Shown here in pieces: positions 2,750-12,400 of a stretch of 13,874 nucleotides of DNA. Numbering within the stretch: position 1 is the first letter of the stretch; each line of letters starts with the position of its first letter. A program made the translations under genes and the position numbers. Origin of the DNA: Bdellovibrionota bacterium (GTDB lineage: Bacteria; Bdellovibrionota_C; UBA2361; OMII01). The notes beneath the pieces are model-generated. The model did no database searches and was not told the DNA's origin. It saw nothing but the letters and a program-made list of their open reading frames with translations. The DNA is taken from positions 1 through 13,874 of the forward strand of contig JBIJBE010000063.1 of assembly GCA_044345405.1 (NCBI GenBank). Reading direction: 5' to 3'.

Positions 2750-4027
2750 CTAGTACAGCCCAACTATCGCATACCCAACCATCGGTAGCGTCTGACGAGC
2801 GGGTCCGTCGCGGAAATAAATCAGACGAGATGTTTTACGTGGAGCTCTATTGAGCATTGACGTAACGAGAGGAACCCAACGCGACGTAAGGGCTGCCACT
2901 CGATGTTTATACTGGTACTCGCCTGGATTTTTCTAGCATTAAGGAATAACCGCTCCCATCACCGGATTAGTTGGCGTGCTCAAGAGTGTTAGATAGCGTT
3001 ACACAACCGGGGGATCGGCGGCTTGAAACATTCTGCAGGCCACGGGACATCCTGGTGCCCTTGCTTCGTAAGTCGATAACATTCAGCGCACCGCCTGATG
3101 AACGCCCGAAAAGTCTCTAAAAACGCCAAGCGAATTTTCTTGCAGGAGCCGTACATAAAGACCTTTCTCTCCTTGTTCTTAGGCACATGTCTATCATCGA
3201 CGATGAACCCCTCAATGTAGCGTGAGGGCTCTTTCTTTGGTGCGAGGCGTGCCTCCTCATGCCGAACCTGAGCGATGATCCTCTGGTGTATCTTCTCGAT
3301 CTTGATGGGGTCTACGATGTTGAAAGCTTCAAGCCACTTAAGGGGCATAACACGGATTGTGTTACGCTCTCTGACGAATGATTTCTGTTGAAGCGATTGA
3401 ATTAGGGTTCGCTCTTCAGACAGTCCCGGATTCTCCTGAGAGAGGGAAGTAATGTCAGTTGCAAGAATCCACGCAACCTCCTTTTCAACCACGGCGTTTA
3501 CATCGGCGGGAACAGATATGAATTCCTTCCAGGTGTTACATCCAGCATACGCATCAATAGAGCGAACGAGTCCTGCTTGCACGGGATTGAGGTAGGTGTA
3601 CACCACTCGATCAATAGCAGCCTCTAGGTCGAGCACCTCACCGATCGTAGTTCTGGTATCCCACAGACGAAGCTGGGGAAGATTGAGAAGGCGCTTTAGT
3701 AAATCAGTGAGGCGTTTCTTAAGCTGCTCATGGAAGCGGGTGAGAGCCGAACAGTCTAGGGAAAAGAGCTGTGTGTGCAGATGGTTGCTCATCCAGACGT
3801 ACCCGCACACAATCACAGCCTCAGAAAGAAGAATTCGTCCCATCGTGCTTTCAATCAGAAGCGCTGTTAGCGCCCGTGCCGGGAGAGGTAGTCCCTGAAG
3901 GGACCGAAAGCACAGGTCGTACATTTTCTTACTTCGAAGCATTCGTCGTCGGCGCATGATGATTCATACATCGAGATTATGCTGTGAGTGTTGTGTCATC
4001 TTCGATGAAAAAGTTGGCCTGTACTAG
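2750..4027 (-). mobile_element. Putative element carrying a Y1-HUH transposase between terminal inverted repeats
   Basis: CTAGTACAGCCCAACT (2750-2765) versus the reverse complement of 4012-4027, CTAGTACAGGCCAACT: 15/16 match. CTAG is outermost at both ends, and the repeats enclose only the transposase gene. Confidence 0.6.
2989..3957 (-). CDS. RAYT-like / IS200-superfamily Y1 HUH transposase
   Basis: HUH motif GYVWMSNHLH and catalytic-Tyr motif YTYLNPVQAGLV, typical of REP-associated tyrosine transposases; long C-terminal extension (322 aa in total). Confidence 0.82.
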   Translation of the reverse strand: MRRRRMLRSKKMYDLCFRSLQGLPLPARALTALLIESTMGRILLSEAVIVCGYVWMSNHLHTQLFSLDCSALTRFHEQLKKRLTDLLKRLLNLPQLRLWDTRTTIGEVLDLEAAIDRVVYTYLNPVQAGLVRSIDAYAGCNTWKEFISVPADVNAVVEKEVAWILATDITSLSQENPGLSEERTLIQSLQQKSFVRERNTIRVMPLKWLEAFNIVDPIKIEKIHQRIIAQVRHEEARLAPKKEPSRYIEGFIVDDRHVPKNKERKVFMYGSCKKIRLAFLETFRAFIRRCAECYRLTKQGHQDVPWPAECFKPPIPRLCNAI

Positions 4028-6189: not shown

Positions 6190-7060
6190 CCTCCGCACCA
6201 TCTTAGTATTCGTTGAGGAGCTCCATCTGAGCACGCTCTGAACCAACTCCTGAATGCCCCACATCTATTCTGCCCGCATCTAACACACACCATCCCCTCC
6301 CCCTCCCGAATCAGCCTGCATGCTCAGGCGCTACATATGGGAGAAGGCAAAGGAGAAGCTCCAACACTACAGGAGGCGTACACCGGAAGCCTCGGTGCTC
6401 TACCAGATCGTCTACCACTCCAGGGATGACCTCCAGCTCCATTGGGAATCCAGGCTCCAGCACCAGTATGGGTGCTTACGCGACGAGGTGATGAAAACCT
6501 TCGACGAGTACCTGAATTGCGGCATCCTCGCGCACGGCGCCGCACGAGTGTATTGCGATGGATGCAAGCACTCGCTCCTTATCGCCTTCTCCTGCAAGCG
6601 CAGAGGGGTGTGTCCCTCATGCGGGGCAAAGAGAGCGGTAAAGTTCGCTGAGCACATCTATAGCGAAGTCATCGACGACGTCCCTCATCGCCATACCGTC
6701 TTTACCATCCCGAAACGCTTGCGAGTCTTCTTTAAGTATGACCGTAAGCTTAATACCATCCTCTTTCGAGCCGCTTGGGGAACACTATCTCAGGTCCTCG
6801 GCATTGACGAGCGTGAACTCGCCGCTATCTTTACCGTACAAACTGCTGGGGAATCATTAAACTATCATCCACACCTTCACGGACTTCTAGCTGACGGATT
6901 CTGGAAGGACGGCGTCTTCACTAGGTTTTCAGAGGTAGACCTCAAGGTAATCGAGGAAGCATTCGCCGAACGAGTACTTGCGCAGCTCCACAAACAAGAG
7001 CTTATCTCTGACGATGATGTGGCGCAGATCTTGTCGCAAGAACACACGGGGTTCGGCGTA

Positions 7061-7091
7061 CCTGTCCCCCGTAGCCTTGTGCGAAGGGGGA
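7061..7091 (+). repeat. 31-bp palindromic insertion, copy 1
   Basis: CCTGTCCCCCGTAGCCTTGTGCGAAGGGGGA; removal restores ...HTGFGV-WLGDPF... (boundary ambiguous by 1 nt). Confidence 0.88.
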
Positions 7092-7230
7092 TGGCTCGGA
7101 GACCCATTCCACGACAAAGAGAGTAAACAATTCGTCGCTCGCTACATCGAACGCGCTCCACTATCTCTTGAGAAACTCTCAATACAAGATGACATCGTTA
7201 CCTACACCACTAAGGACGGCGCGGCTCATG

Positions 7231-7262
7231 CCTGTCCCGCCGTAGCCTTGCGCGAAGGCGGA
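7231..7262 (+). repeat. 32-bp palindromic insertion, copy 2
   Basis: CCTGTCCCGCCGTAGCCTTGCGCGAAGGCGGA; removal restores ...DGAAH-E-FDALEFLAAL... Confidence 0.88.
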
Positions 7263-7869
7263 AGTTTGACGCTCTGGAGTTTTTGGCGGCGCTTTCGTGT
7301 CATGTACCGAAGACCTATGAATCAATCACAAGATACTACGGTCGCTACTCCTGTAGGCGACGGGGCGAACGCGCTAAACTCTCCCCTCCCCCAGACGATG
7401 AAACACAAAGCGACTATAGGAGAGAGTTCACGAGGAGCTGTTGGGCCGCGTGCATCAAGAGAATCTACGAAGTTGATCCTCTCGAGTGCCCCAAGTGCAA
7501 AGCGCAGATGCGTATTATCTCCTTCCTTCAGGATGCGCATTCAATCAAGGACATCATGAAATCTCAGGGGATCGCTGACTTCCGAGCACCTCCTCCCATC
7601 CCAAAGTTCATCGATACCTCTCACGCTATCGATGAAATAGCCTCCTACGACTCCTTTGAGCCGTCGCCTGATGATTTCTAAAACCCGCTTCCTCTGTGAC
7701 GGAGCCGGTGGAGTGTCGATAAAATGCTACTTTTCGCGACTTAGCTCACCCTTGCCCACTCCGCTTGAACTCTAGAAAACCTAGCTTGGCGCCACTAACC
7801 ACGCATCCCGGCCCTTCTTTGACCAATCGCCCCGGAGACATCAACAGTCCGCCACAGCAGTTCAACTAC

Positions 7870-8013
7870 TTACAAAAAAGCGATTGGTTTTCCTATCCTT
7901 AACAACAGGGCTGCTCCTAGTGTGCCGTTAAGGATCGCAAATTCCCGCGGAGCGCCTCCCAAGAGGATAGGCTGCGTGAGAGAGCGATGGACCGGAACTC
8001 TGAATCCTTCCAT
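7870..8013 (-). pseudogene. trbD: Conjugal transfer protein TrbD/VirB3, truncated by the IS91 end
   Basis: Not in the ORF track. MEGFRVPVHRSLTQPILLGGAPREFAILNGTLGAALLL (8013-7900) then runs into IS sequence (RIGKPIAFL*). Starts 9 bp after the trbC stop. Confidence 0.88.
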
Positions 8014-8022
8014 CTGAAGCCC

Positions 8023-8328
8023 TTACCAACCAAACAGGACGGGAGCCCAGGTAGAAGCGCCGATCGCTACCGCCCCACCAAACGTGGCCGCCATCGCTCT
8101 CCGGAAGAAGGAGCCTGCCTCTCCGACACACAGTGCCAGGCCAGCGATAACTATTGCTCCGATGATAATGGCCTGAGCCGTCGGGCCTTGTAGGCTTGCA
8201 AGTAATTGTCGCAGGGGATTCTCCCAAGGCATCGCCTGGGCGTGCGCCTCAGTGGTAACGGTCAAATAAGCGAGCGCGAAGCAGGTTATCGCGAATCGAA
8301 AGTCACGGTTGATTCGTTTTTTTTGCAT
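8023..8328 (-). CDS. trbC: Conjugative pilin TrbC/VirB2
   Basis: Signal peptide ending in AHA, then MPWENPLRQLLASLQGP, two hydrophobic segments and GEAGSFFRR. Start placed at ATG 8328 (AGAGGGA RBS), 101 aa. Confidence 0.9.
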   Translation of the reverse strand: MQKKRINRDFRFAITCFALAYLTVTTEAHAQAMPWENPLRQLLASLQGPTAQAIIIGAIVIAGLALCVGEAGSFFRRAMAATFGGAVAIGASTWAPVLFGW

Positions 8329-8839
8329 AGCTTTTGTTCCCTCTGTATGCGCACACAGTGCGTTGTTAGGGGGAACAATAGCTGAGCTCGGCTCAGGGAT
8401 AGTGGGCACCTGAATGAGGCAGCGTGAAAACGTCCCATATGAAATAGCTGCCCTGTTGCATTGTGAGGGCATCTTATCTGCGGGTAAGAACGCCCCAACT
8501 CGTGGGATGGTGTACCTCCAATCGAGCCGTGATTCGACTTTCGAGCAGACCGTCGAGCACTCGCCTGGCGATAGGATAGGCGCGTGTCGTAAGTGTCAAA
8601 GACTGGTAGCACGAAGCTTGCAGATTTCGGTACTTTCTATTATGTGCGGGCCAGCCTAGCCACGACCCGGATAACCTACGAGATGAAGGCTAATGCAAGC
8701 ACGAATGGGTAAAACTATGAGACATACAAAGAGCAAAGTCGCATCTAATGAAACCAAAAGCTCAAAAATAAAAACTGAGATGTCGCCATCGAAAACAAAC
8801 CAAAGCTTGGGTGGACTGCTATTTGCGCACCGGCCATTC

Positions 8840-9438: not shown

Positions 9439-10233
9439 TTAGCGCTCCCCTCCACCTGCTAAGAAACCATTAAAGGCGAAACGAATTGGTAGCTCGTCGT
9501 TCTCCCTGTAGCAATTGAATACCTCCCTCACCTCAAGGTCTATCTGCGCGGCGTGTTTTGACCAAGGTACGTATGAGAAAGAATGCGTAAGGTCAAGGAA
9601 TCGAGACTCGGAATACGGGATAGTAATGTATTCATGCCAATGCTTGAACCCTGAGGACACAAAGAAGCAGTCAAGGTTCTGGGTTTTGACGAAATCAGGT
9701 TCTATAAGATTGCCTGTTTCCTTGGTGTACTTGGCTAGGGTCGCATCAAAGTCTCGCATGAATGGATTTTCTGTTGCAAAAGCGTACCAGGTGAGAAAGA
9801 CATGACCATTGGGGTTCAATATTCGATCAAATTCCCGACGGGTAGCCGCTTGCTCAAAAAAATGAAACGATTGTGCTGCCGTAATAAGATCAACACTGCC
9901 ATCTGGTAAACCTGTCGATTCCGCCGACCCCTTCAAGGCCTTAAGGCCATCCCTGTGGATCAAGGAACGCATGTCGTCTCCGGGCTCTATAAAGGACACA
10001 TCGGCTCCGCGATGCACTAAGTGGCGGCCCAACTTTCCAGTACCAGCACCGACATCCGCAACACGCTTTCCCGCAAAAGCTCCGGTTTCCCCCTCAAGCC
10101 AATCAATAAGCTCCCTGGGGTAGTCAGGGCGAGCATCATGGTAGAATTCTTGCCTACCATTGAAGCTCTCCACAGGATGAGCTGTTCCAGAATAGCCCCT
10201 TCCAGGTTTAATATCTTGTGCGAAATGAGCCAT
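9439..10233 (-). CDS. Class I SAM-dependent methyltransferase
   Basis: RPDYP, motif I VADVGAGTGKL, GSAESTGLPDGSVDLITAAQSFHFF and RILNPNG. Confidence 0.93.
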   Translation of the reverse strand: MAHFAQDIKPGRGYSGTAHPVESFNGRQEFYHDARPDYPRELIDWLEGETGAFAGKRVADVGAGTGKLGRHLVHRGADVSFIEPGDDMRSLIHRDGLKALKGSAESTGLPDGSVDLITAAQSFHFFEQAATRREFDRILNPNGHVFLTWYAFATENPFMRDFDATLAKYTKETGNLIEPDFVKTQNLDCFFVSSGFKHWHEYITIPYSESRFLDLTHSFSYVPWSKHAAQIDLEVREVFNCYRENDELPIRFAFNGFLAGGGER

Positions 10234-10379
10234 ATGCTGTCTCGTTTGATAGTCGTTGTATTGTTAAACAAATGTTACGAAATACTCATTAGCACAGCGG
10301 AACGAGGATGAGAGCGACGAATACTCGCTATTCTGTTGTTGGTCGCTTCCCATGTCATCCCCAAGAACCACTACAGCCT

Positions 10380-11363
10380 TTAGAAGAACGGATCGATTTG
10401 GTTGTTATGGCGCTCCCGAAAATCAGCCGGTTTTAAGCTCGATTCGCAGAAGGCAGACACAACCGAGAAATCCGAACGACTTATTATAGGCGCAATGAAC
10501 AATTGCCTCGCACCCTCTCCTAAGACGCGAAGAACGGTGACATCCACTGGGTCTTCTCGCTCTAGGTCGAGGTTACTCTGCGGGATTTGTCTTGTTACCT
10601 TTCCCAAGAACTGCTCTTCGGCCTTGGCGAAGCCACCTGCAACGTAGCGCTCGTATCTACCATTTCCCGCATCTGAGTTGTAAGCAGGGGCCTGGTTTCG
10701 CGACATTGAGTCAAACACCATGACGGCCTCTAGGAATGCCTTGTCAGCAGCCCTTCCAAGCGTACGCGCCATTGCGGACCCAACACACCAAAGCGACCCC
10801 TTCCCCTTAAGCGTTACGAGACAGAAGGGAACGGAAGGCTCCTCGTCCACTGTATAGTATTCTGCGACTATTCCTTCACCTGCTAGGCGCTCAGTCTTAA
10901 AGAGTCGGAGATGCACATCGTCTTCCCACCAGAATCTGGCGAGGACGTGACGTTCGCAAAGTTCCAGGACGGCTCTTTCCGATGCGTCATCGATACTTAC
11001 TCCGTACGCCAATCCAGTCGCATCACTTTTTGAACCCTTTTCCCTGAAACCCAACATCACTGAACTAGCCGCAATTGTGATTTGTTTTGAAAGATCGGGC
11101 CACGCAAAGGCCGGAAGCATCGACTTCGGATCGACCATGCCACTGCACGCGGGATAGAACGACCAGAACCTTTCGAGGAACTCAAAATGCGCAATGCGTT
11201 TAGCTTTAGAAGCATCATCAGACAAACCAAAGCCGATGATGTTGAGGCTCTCGCCACTGTCGCGCGACAGGGAGAGCCCTTCCTTTGCTATAAAGTAACC
11301 ATGAGGTCTGGCCGTTACCGAGACTGCGGTCGTAGCTGGTAGATCAGTTGGGAGGCGGTTCAT
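10380..11363 (-). CDS. Stand-alone YcaO-family protein (ATP-dependent backbone amide activation)
   Basis: YcaO ATP/Mg motifs GFG....A..IAHFEFLER, ATGLAYG....A...AVLELCERH and GSA.......AADKAFLEA; C-terminus DPFF; start overlaps the upstream stop (ATGA at 11360-11363). Confidence 0.85.
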   Translation of the reverse strand: MNRLPTDLPATTAVSVTARPHGYFIAKEGLSLSRDSGESLNIIGFGLSDDASKAKRIAHFEFLERFWSFYPACSGMVDPKSMLPAFAWPDLSKQITIAASSVMLGFREKGSKSDATGLAYGVSIDDASERAVLELCERHVLARFWWEDDVHLRLFKTERLAGEGIVAEYYTVDEEPSVPFCLVTLKGKGSLWCVGSAMARTLGRAADKAFLEAVMVFDSMSRNQAPAYNSDAGNGRYERYVAGGFAKAEEQFLGKVTRQIPQSNLDLEREDPVDVTVLRVLGEGARQLFIAPIISRSDFSVVSAFCESSLKPADFRERHNNQIDPFF

Positions 11364-12361
11364 TGCGGCTCCATGAGTGCAGCTTGGCGCAAAGTGGCGA
11401 CAACTTTCTTACCCGCTTCCGTGAGCCGGGCATGCCTCGCTACCGTTTCATAGCCCCTCTCAAATCGAGACAATGCCTTCTCGTATTCGGTATGAGCAAC
11501 GTCTAGCCCTGACGCCTCATTCCACTTTCTGAAAACTCTGGCCATCCTACTTAGGACAAACGTAGCATGGAATATTCCGTACATTGGCCTAAGATCCGCA
11601 CGAATTGGTGCGGGAAAGCGCTCCTCGTCGGAATTCAAAACGAGTCGGTCATGCATCATTATGCCATGTAAGTGGAGGTGTGCTCCTTCGTGAACTATGT
11701 GTTCGATGTAGTAGGCAACCTTCTCCTCTTCACTCAAATCTTGCTCGGGGATCCTAATATAGATCTTTCCAAACGCTCTCATGCTGGTGATACCAACTAG
11801 AACGAGTCCATCGAAGAGAACTATGTGGCTTGTATATTCCTGTATTTCTTCGTAGGAGCCCTCATCGACTTCCTTGATGATACGTAAAGCCTCTTCAACA
11901 TACTTGGATTGAACGTCCACCTCAATTTCACTAAGCGGGTGGACTGTTGGCATCTCACCTTGCTTCGACCGAGGCCCCTCCGAGCTCAATACATAATCCA
12001 ATATGGAGCTATCGGAAGGAGCCGACTCATCAAAAGTTGTAATTGCGAACGAAGAAACTGCAAGCTGCTCCTCCGGATAACGGGACAGGTCTACCAGCGC
12101 CTTCTTGAGGCCGGCACCGTCGCCGCTAGCAAGGGCTCTGAGTAGCTTTGCGTGAAAACCATACACGTCAGGGCTTAGTGCATCGTTAGAGCTCTGCAGT
12201 CTACTTAGTTTGTCAGAAATTTCGTGTAACGGAACACCTATGATGTCCTGCGCTCGCTCCACCAATCCAAGGAGCTCGTTCACAAGACTCCGTTGCAAAT
12301 GAGTGTGCAAGATGTGTGACATTCCAGGGGTTGGTAGTGATGAATATATGTCTTGGTTCAT
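11360..12361 (-). CDS. HExxH-motif peptide-modifying enzyme (aKG/Fe-dependent beta-hydroxylase type)
   Basis: IVHEGAHLHL followed by FPAPIRADLRPMYGIFHATFV, matching the family pattern S-P-x-R-x-D-x-R-P...H-A; upstream GITSMRAFGKIYI. Confidence 0.87.
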   Translation of the reverse strand: MNQDIYSSLPTPGMSHILHTHLQRSLVNELLGLVERAQDIIGVPLHEISDKLSRLQSSNDALSPDVYGFHAKLLRALASGDGAGLKKALVDLSRYPEEQLAVSSFAITTFDESAPSDSSILDYVLSSEGPRSKQGEMPTVHPLSEIEVDVQSKYVEEALRIIKEVDEGSYEEIQEYTSHIVLFDGLVLVGITSMRAFGKIYIRIPEQDLSEEEKVAYYIEHIVHEGAHLHLHGIMMHDRLVLNSDEERFPAPIRADLRPMYGIFHATFVLSRMARVFRKWNEASGLDVAHTEYEKALSRFERGYETVARHARLTEAGKKVVATLRQAALMEPQ

Positions 12362-12372
12362 GAATGCCCGTT

Positions 12373-12400
12373 AAAAAGCTACGGGGGCAAGCCCCCGTAG
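12373..12400 (-). terminator. Stem-loop with U-tract between the precursor and modification genes
   Basis: Minus strand reads CTACGGGGG-CTTG-CCCCCGTAG-C-TTTTT; it ends 11 nt before the HExxH ATG. Confidence 0.8.

Follow-up and report, generated by a model that had tools for sequence, protein, structure and literature searches.

The window, a stretch of 13,874 nucleotides from a Bdellovibrionota bacterium, carries an IS91-family transposase gene whose reading frame is broken at two points by short palindromic segments, and this raises the question of what these segments are and how they came to lie in the gene. The first, e1, occupies positions 7061-7091 (+) as a 31-nt single-hairpin micro-element and follows the Val codon of the motif GFGV-W. 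The second, e2, is its 32-nt sibling at 7231-7262 (+) and lies inside the Glu codon of AAH-E-FDALEF.

The interrupted gene is read in three parts, all on the plus strand. Part A (6320-7060, 247 codons) covers the Zn_Tnp_IS91 domain and the start of the Y2_Tnp domain and reads ..HTGFGV. Part B (7092-7230) comprises 46 codons (7092-7229) and the first base of the next codon and reads WLGDPFHDKE..KDGAAH; its frame is +1 because of the insertion of e1. With part C (7263-7681) the first frame is resumed (FDALEFLAALSCHVP..); this part completes the split codon with its last two bases and continues for 138 codons to the stop. The frame that reads through e1 ends at a TAA at 7124-7126 (+), the stop already noticed in the first-pass annotation of the window. 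With e1 and e2 ignored, the codons add up to 247+46+1+138 = 432, which is the length of the intact homologues, and the window copy shows no stop codon and no other indel; removal of both segments thus restores the frame and the family motifs, as that annotation had stated. It had also argued that the two lengths sum to 63 nt, by which the downstream frame is regained. The arithmetic is true, but the sum is incidental, because a related copy (L028) carries 31 and 31 nt at the e1 and e2 sites.

The host gene was identified as an IS91-family transposase with Zn-binding N-terminal and Y2 HUH domains by PF14319 (E 1.9e-20) and a partial match to PF04986. Its match to NF033538 (E 5.6e-33) scored 114 bits against a cut-off of 125 bits, a shortfall due to the split in the gene. 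DNA similarity to related IS91 copies (blastn against L015) extends over 6279-7898 (+), which approximates the element body. A TrbC/VirB2 pilin gene (8023-8472, -) adjoins this IS91 copy, and part of the window may therefore belong to a conjugative element. Elsewhere in the window, a row of genes at 9439-12361 (-) may be a modified-peptide (RiPP-like) cluster, as its products are a methyltransferase, a YcaO-like protein and an aKG-HExxH-type peptide beta-hydroxylase; a perfect palindrome with GTAG lies after this row at about 12370-12400.

The starts of e1 and e2 are 170 nt apart and their orientation is equal. Both begin with CCTGTCC, contain CCGTAGCCTTG-N-GCGAAGG and end with GGA, exactly as the earlier description of sibling palindromes had given motifs and spacing, and their stems covary (TCCCCC/GGGGGA in e1, CCGCC/GGCGG in e2). 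The layout of e1 is a CCTGT head, a 6-bp stem, a GTA/GAA internal loop, a GC/GC stem and a 5-nt loop. For both elements the predicted DNA fold consists of the outer stem, a 3x3 internal loop (GTA versus GAA) and the GC/GC stem with its 5-nt loop. The predicted energies, -7.6 kcal/mol for e1 (z -2.5) and -7.1 kcal/mol for e2 (z -1.5), are only modestly unusual for single sequences, and the support for the structure thus comes from covariation. The C-GNA-G arms of the hairpin resemble the known DNA mini-hairpin GCGNAGC as a partial match. No Rfam match was found at 7061-7262 at E<=1, and 12 other family loci gave only unrelated tmRNA and tRNA matches in Rfam.

A genome search had been proposed at first pass; in the 3.59-Mb genome the exact 19-nt core gave two matches, e1 and e2, and a reversed control pattern gave none; in this genome the e-type is confined to IS91. 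When the core was relaxed, a wider family of hairpins emerged, in which the centre, G(T/A)AGC-loop-GCG(A/T)A, is conserved and the outer stems covary. Eight copies served to train a covariance model (R1); counting these eight, it has 53 matches in the genome at E<0.01 and 72 at E<0.1. In an alignment of 37 distinct sequences, which was fitted to the model and so somewhat favours structure, 95.9% of cells were paired and 6 of the 8 pairs showed compensatory changes. The observed covariation score was reached by none of 500 shuffles, and slid controls gave 41-52% pairing.

Outside IS91, the family copies of this genome are intergenic or lie at gene ends. Candidates for other coding interruptions, both in the genome and in metagenome and viral loci, look like spurious GC-rich frames and were rejected. 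At two solo chromosomal copies the intergenic DNA was too variable for orthologous empty sites to be read. The genome also holds about 207 copies of a REP-like hairpin, GGCGRYC-N6-GRYCGCC, with the loop AGGAAT in 159, and 35 further REP-like hairpins have loops of 28-38 nt that hold a micro-element. In 17 of these 35 the arrangement can be accounted for by clean insertion into a common 6-nt loop (e.g. AGG^AAT); the other 18 are not explained in this way.

Further repeats of this genome (G000) were recorded. A third loop insert, of 25 nt and the form CCTGTCCCGAGC-N4-TCGAGGGAG, occurs in AG^GAAT loops of the REP-like hairpin of about 207 copies, for example at C1:63097, C77:18142 and C22:68129. 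An 84-bp tandem repeat with one family hairpin per unit is found at C82:1-242 (L006) beside tmRNA (L006:340-744), and similar tandem units are present in C36 (106 bp, beside two tRNAs), C57 (145 bp) and C78 (146 bp). At C40:11883-16100 (L232:383-4600) there are inverted repeats of about 500 nt, 95-98% complementary, with a 40-nt R1-like hairpin in each arm; this pair was rejected as a transposase-bracketing unit, the enclosed genes being BtpA and PfkB-family genes. Phased ACGT-rich palindromes lie in intergenic DNA beside a solo hairpin at C83:59730-59900 (L082), and in a relative (G020) palindromes of this type are present and the hairpin is absent.

Three independent lines of evidence establish that e1 and e2 are true insertions. 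The first comes from 43 related IS91 loci in other Bdellovibrionota MAGs, where six intact ORFs of 432 aa (L015, L016, L017, L019, L020 and L030) lack both elements and read ..HTGFGVW.. and ..KDGAAHEFDALEF.. (AAHEFDALEF) across the two sites; these are uninterrupted copies of the kind with which an alignment had been called for. The second is a paralogue at a contig end of the same genome (C25:1-189), which reads CATG^AGTTTGA in frame with exactly 7231-7262 missing, and this fixes the borders of e2 to the base. The third comes from contigs of lake-water metagenomes (Logan), assembled and not raw reads, that were aligned to 6700-7700. Record 9 of run X15 has an empty e1 joint, passing from 7059 to 7092, with no mismatch over 6802-7059 (258 nt) and one over 7092-7182 (91 nt), and the same empty joint was found in a second run, X17. 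Contigs filled with e1 come from other runs (X11 record 3 and X6 record 25). The empty e2 joint (7230 to 7263) was found in four of four runs, on copies of about 88% identity.

The empty alleles that the first-pass annotation had suggested looking for are thus present, as assembled contigs with identical flanks that skip e1. Since alleles with and without e1 coexist in the lake population, the insertion or the loss is recent. Base 7060 is T in the empty e1 allele and A in the filled one, which indicates that there was no simple precise excision of this very allele. At the e1 site in general (ORF position 741), the base before CCTG is A in five of five filled alleles; in empty alleles it is mostly C or T, with A in about 5 of 19. 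No target duplication was seen at any junction examined in the window, the C25 paralogue or the related IS91 copies, and every junction was exact. Both the clean insertion without target duplication and the tiny non-autonomous mobile units of the first-pass annotation are borne out by these results, the latter by the empty sites, the other copies and the homologues that lack the segments.

When related IS91 copies were aligned to an intact copy, inserts of 30-34 nt were found at ORF positions ~198, 331, 741, 794(-), 880, 1127, 1135(-), 1200 and ~1260(-), of which 741 corresponds to e1 and 880 to e2. Their junctions are exact and without duplication, they lie in both orientations, and one IS91 copy (L027) has about seven of them. 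The subtype of e1 and e2 (loop CCTTGYGC) is represented by 22 copies in 10 of 60 relatives, about 15 of the 22 lying in IS91 at sites 741, 794, 880 and 1135. IS91 is a preferred target in this genus, in agreement with the earlier suggestion that mobile DNA is favoured. That transposases are disarmed, as had also been suggested, is right in effect, because the reading frame is broken, but a purpose is not supported.

No shared target motif was found among the IS91 sites. GCGAA/TTCGC near the sites proved inconsistent across copies and was rejected as a motif. Three of eight IS91 sites lie in loops of perfect small hairpins, against background fractions of 0.008-0.067, and as this is true of three sites only, such loops were rejected as a general target. 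The ends of IS91 were rejected as the source of the hairpin, since the left end (aligned) and the right-end region are unlike it, and in the related IS91 loci no R1 match recurs at a fixed place beside the ORF.

Related IS91 ORFs also contain a second family of micro-inserts, 21-23 nt long (GGTGAGCYTGTCGAACC and its complement), which break them at positions ~15, 214, 276, 562, 702 and 738 and have a CYTGTC head as in e1 and e2. Members lie at L041:2473-2494, 2794-2814 and 3296-3318, L031:2477-2498, L047:2779-2799 and L051:2842-2864, and a 35-nt palindromic form lies at L038:2175-2209.

The distribution of the R1 family in the same genus is patchy, with 0-37 copies per genome and presence in 21 of 34 other genomes; among 25 genomes from other families of the order, 10 had it, the highest copy number being 45. 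The strict 31-nt e-type pattern is widely spread in the environment and was found in at least 121 metagenome contig stretches. We examined 80 of these loci, with 82 copies, 80 of which had enough flank on both sides. These 80 copies gave 73 unique flank contexts, not all independent since about 19 share one lineage-specific repeat, and the GC content of the loci ranges from 32 to 69%. No IS91 match was found in the 80 loci. Of the 73 contexts, 68 have A or T directly 3' of the element and 56 have a purine directly 5' of it; about 10% lie in a stem of 5 bp or longer, the figure for re-paired controls being 2.6%. However, a truly universal spread is spoken against by several searches: the strict pattern was absent from all 301 genomes of a Planctomycetota-centred sample and was present in 7 of 124 genomes of an own-phylum sample (6 of the 7 in this genus), blastn of the 31-mer against a plasmid collection gave no match, and viral contigs gave only two.

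On this evidence, e1 and e2 are probably two copies of a single-hairpin mobile DNA unit of about 31 nt, REP/SDR-like, which was pasted into an otherwise intact IS91-family transposase gene and moved in trans. The unit has a C(C/T)TGT head, followed by a stem of 5-6 bp that covaries and by a conserved core, G(T/A)AGC...GCGAA, whose internal loop is rich in purines; the apical loop is short. Neither insertion duplicated its target, and the two sites belong to a set of nine or more points at which this IS91 lineage has repeatedly been hit; translation would be stopped by the TAG of the element or by the frameshift. Movement may take place as folded single-stranded DNA, by an enzyme that is not encoded in the unit, with a preference for an R^W junction and often for hairpin loops. 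Read most simply, the data point to recent insertion at selected sites, possibly accompanied by precise loss, and conversion between IS91 copies may contribute.

Conversion may be given a larger part, such that most of the spread within IS91 would be due to homologous recombination or gene conversion between copies, in a homing-like manner with short co-converted flanks. We consider this unlikely. It accords with the fact that the same site is filled in copies that differ by 31-50% at third codon positions (50-69% identity over the flanking 300 nt), with elements that are 84-100% identical there and, between the window copy and L036, identical at 31 of 31 positions. Variants also look site-specific (sites 331 and 1200 have CCGAC/GTCGG stems, site 198 has CTCGCC); at site 741 every filled allele shares the A before CCTG where empty ones mostly have C or T; and the e-type lies only in IS91 in this genome and almost only in this genus in the phylum sample (6 of 7 among 124 genomes). 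However, the same variant is found at four IS91 sites in both orientations (741, 880, 794- and 1135-), for which real transposition is needed. Furthermore, the stems at site 880 differ between genomes by compensated pairs (CCCCC/GGGGG, CCGCC/GGCGG and CCTCC/GGAGG), the 73 unrelated contexts lie outside IS91, and no long conversion tract surrounds e1 in the comparison of the window copy with L036.

The state of the interrupted genes bears on another explanation, in which the inserts are tolerated or act as a reversible switch, the transposase still being made through frequent precise DNA excision or through removal or bypass at the RNA or ribosome level, with selection acting on interrupted copies. 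Once the inserts are ignored, the copies of the window, L028, L036, L024 and L027 are without stop or frameshifting indel; L024 has one 3-nt in-frame deletion, and L027 is clean in spite of its roughly seven inserts. Apart from the inserts, the frame is unbroken in five of the eight copies that carry them, and about 7 of 13 copies without inserts are likewise free of frame-breaking lesions. The IS91 transposase copies (L015-L041) are old and constrained, with dN/dS of 0.03-0.12 at dS of 0.4-1.8 over all pairs, insert-bearing ones included; high divergence at silent sites under such constraint, seen both within and between genomes, is unusual for IS copies in one genome, and the elements are more conserved than synonymous sites. 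But pairwise dN/dS mostly reflects history before insertion, and intact frames are equally well explained by recent insertion. Translational-bypass inserts (phage T4 gene 60 relatives and mitochondrial byp elements) are likewise short mobile inserts in otherwise intact coding sequence, yet they need matched take-off and landing codons and sense orientation, which the e-type inserts do not have: no matching codons surround e1 or e2 in the window sequence. Continued function of the interrupted genes is disfavoured because the inserts lie in both orientations, bring in-frame TAG stops (L027 ends ..AACPT*) and follow no rule in their lengths of 30-34 nt (31+31 in L028), and we regard this explanation as very improbable.

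That the segments are native to the transposase lineage, or are assembly artefacts, has virtually no chance of being right. Nothing was found in its favour, and the elements recur at the same sites in several assemblies. Neither element is present in the six intact homologues, and the C25 paralogue lacks e2; the segments cause frameshifts and introduce stops, and filled and empty forms are found in independent assemblies and four metagenome runs.

If single hairpins are moved in trans, the question is by what. The first-pass annotation had named a nearby RAYT gene as candidate. This ORF, at 2989-3957 (-), has 322 aa with the motifs NHLH and YTYLNPVQAGLV, and judged by its sequence it is a genuine but divergent Y1 HUH protein (RAYT/TIRYT-like). 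It matches NF047646 over the whole profile with E 3.5e-6, below the cut-off; no Pfam match was found even at E<=10, and a PDB sequence search gave nothing meaningful. Seven of its full-length paralogues reach or approach the Pfam Y1_Tnp cut-off.

However, the gene is bracketed by inverted repeats of its own type, CTGGTRCAGSCCAAC, at 2750-2772 and 4005-4027. We compared the flanks of 11 RAYT-like genes (4 of group A including that of the window, and 7 of group B), and all have other repeats (CTGGTRCAGSCCAAC; CTCTGTAGCCGGGCTAC etc.) and no R1 match; group B genes have tandem arrays of other GTAG-type repeats. Among 60 relatives, the RAYT subfamily of the window and the R1 family do not co-occur: the subfamily is present with no R1 match in G006 and G026 and absent with 8-45 R1 matches in G012, G055, G050 and G035. 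The RAYT-like gene of the window is thus probably not cognate to e1 and e2, and the earlier proposal is not supported.

The genome of 3.6 Mb has at least 13 RAYT/TIRYT-like Y1 genes of about 320-350 aa, each with its own short repeats in upstream tandem arrays and downstream inverted form (among them C18:70847-71800, C26:119432-120316, C52:36938-37852 and C67:31309-32232, as well as window 2750-4027), and the family occurs in 53 of 61 genomes of the order. Other candidates were rejected as well. The 230-aa RayT type was not found in G000, G012, G055 or G043 and shows no co-occurrence; IS91 itself does not co-occur with the R1 family; and Y1_Tnp (PF01797) in general is present in five of five R1-rich genomes tested, yet it is near-ubiquitous in the order and does not discriminate. 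The co-occurrence tests of these four (window RAYT subfamily, 230-aa RayT, PF01797 and IS91) tied no gene to the hairpin family. By analogy, a Y1 HUH enzyme of RAYT type would be the leading candidate mover, in view of the lack of target duplication, the folded single-strand character, the CT in the head and the required stem irregularity.

GTAG REPs are among the nearest known systems. As described in the main text of PMC3733652, they are imperfect palindromes of 20-40 nt with a GTAG motif and a required stem irregularity, present in many copies, mostly extragenic and in some cases inside ORFs, and the e-type shares these features: the elements have 30-32 nt, and the 53 R1 matches are mostly extragenic. 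Y1 HUH genes are abundant in the host in both cases. REPs nested in small palindromes have been described for GTAG-23 of T. roseum (PMC3733652), and the CT dinucleotide at which TnpA_REP cleaves, according to the text of PMC8266576, is present in the e-type head. On the other hand, the GTAG (or CGTC) tag of that superfamily is given as unpaired at one end of the palindrome (PMC3733652), forming a foot, whereas here GTAG lies inside the stem, in the 3x3 internal loop between the outer and inner stems, and it is often changed (31 of 73 metagenome copies have GAAG, and several copies in the genome have ATAG or GGAG). In REPtrons the RAYT gene is flanked by its own inverted REPs, whereas none of the 11 RAYT-like genes here is flanked by the e-type hairpin, although the arrangements of these genes resemble REPtron and TIRYT as these are described in PMC3733652 and PMC6006769. 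The intragenic REPs that the main text of PMC3733652 describes are in-frame additions, whereas e1 and e2 shift the frame inside a transposase. REP families are also mostly species-specific, in contrast to a 31-mer found in host DNA of 32-69% GC. GCGAAG, GTAGCC, CTTGTC and CCTGTC are absent from the main text of PMC3733652.

REPINs are likewise miniature non-autonomous DNA made of REP hairpins, with excision or absence alleles in population data (PMC3116915). However, they are inverted doublets, whereas each of the IS91 inserts, e1 and e2 included, is one hairpin of 30-34 nt. In the account of PMC3116915, singlets are immobile remnants, with no singlet excision in about 56 million reads. Unlike those, the singlet hairpin here has filled and empty alleles and many independent insertion sites. 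Rickettsia palindromic elements are palindromic repeats inside ORFs, like e1 and e2, but they are longer, in frame and translated as an extra peptide, whereas e1 and e2 break the frame (background in PMC3733652). MITEs, of 70-300 bp, have terminal inverted repeats and a target-site duplication, unlike these elements of 31-32 nt without duplication. Elements of the IS200/IS605 type (PATE) make no duplication, as here, but they have two differing subterminal hairpins where the e-type has one, and they insert 3' of a fixed tetra- or pentanucleotide, whereas the e-type shows an R^W bias only (A or T at +1 in 68 of 73). The Nostoc repeats SDR4-6 (Elhai et al. 2008) are said to be units of 21-27 nt, precisely inserted and often nested in other repeats; these are cyanobacterial and shorter than the e-type, and we know of no report of them as recurrent frameshifting inserts in a transposase gene. 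Our literature searches brought up neither REP-like inserts in IS91 transposases nor this 31-mer. Unusual here are the clean evidence of mobility and a transposase gene as recurrent target.

How REP-like palindromes spread is unsettled, and in the prevailing view only doublets (REPINs) move, with a flanking RAYT. In the present case the insertions lie in coding sequence, which defines their junctions to the base; recurrent sites are many and are filled in both orientations; filled and empty alleles occur in one natural population; and the strict 31-mer is traceable through different environments. With these four features, it becomes directly testable what moves a single hairpin. A more far-reaching version, which we hold to be rather doubtful, is that a single hairpin of about 31 nt would be a complete mobile unit, the smallest known, common almost letter for letter to unrelated bacteria, and that a widely distributed enzyme acting on single-stranded DNA would move it precisely and reversibly. 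In this genus the hairpin would then switch IS91 transposases off in a reversible way, as a parasite of a parasite, and this would account for copies with up to seven inserts that keep otherwise perfect frames. The case suggests that very small elements may silence the transposases of other mobile DNA.
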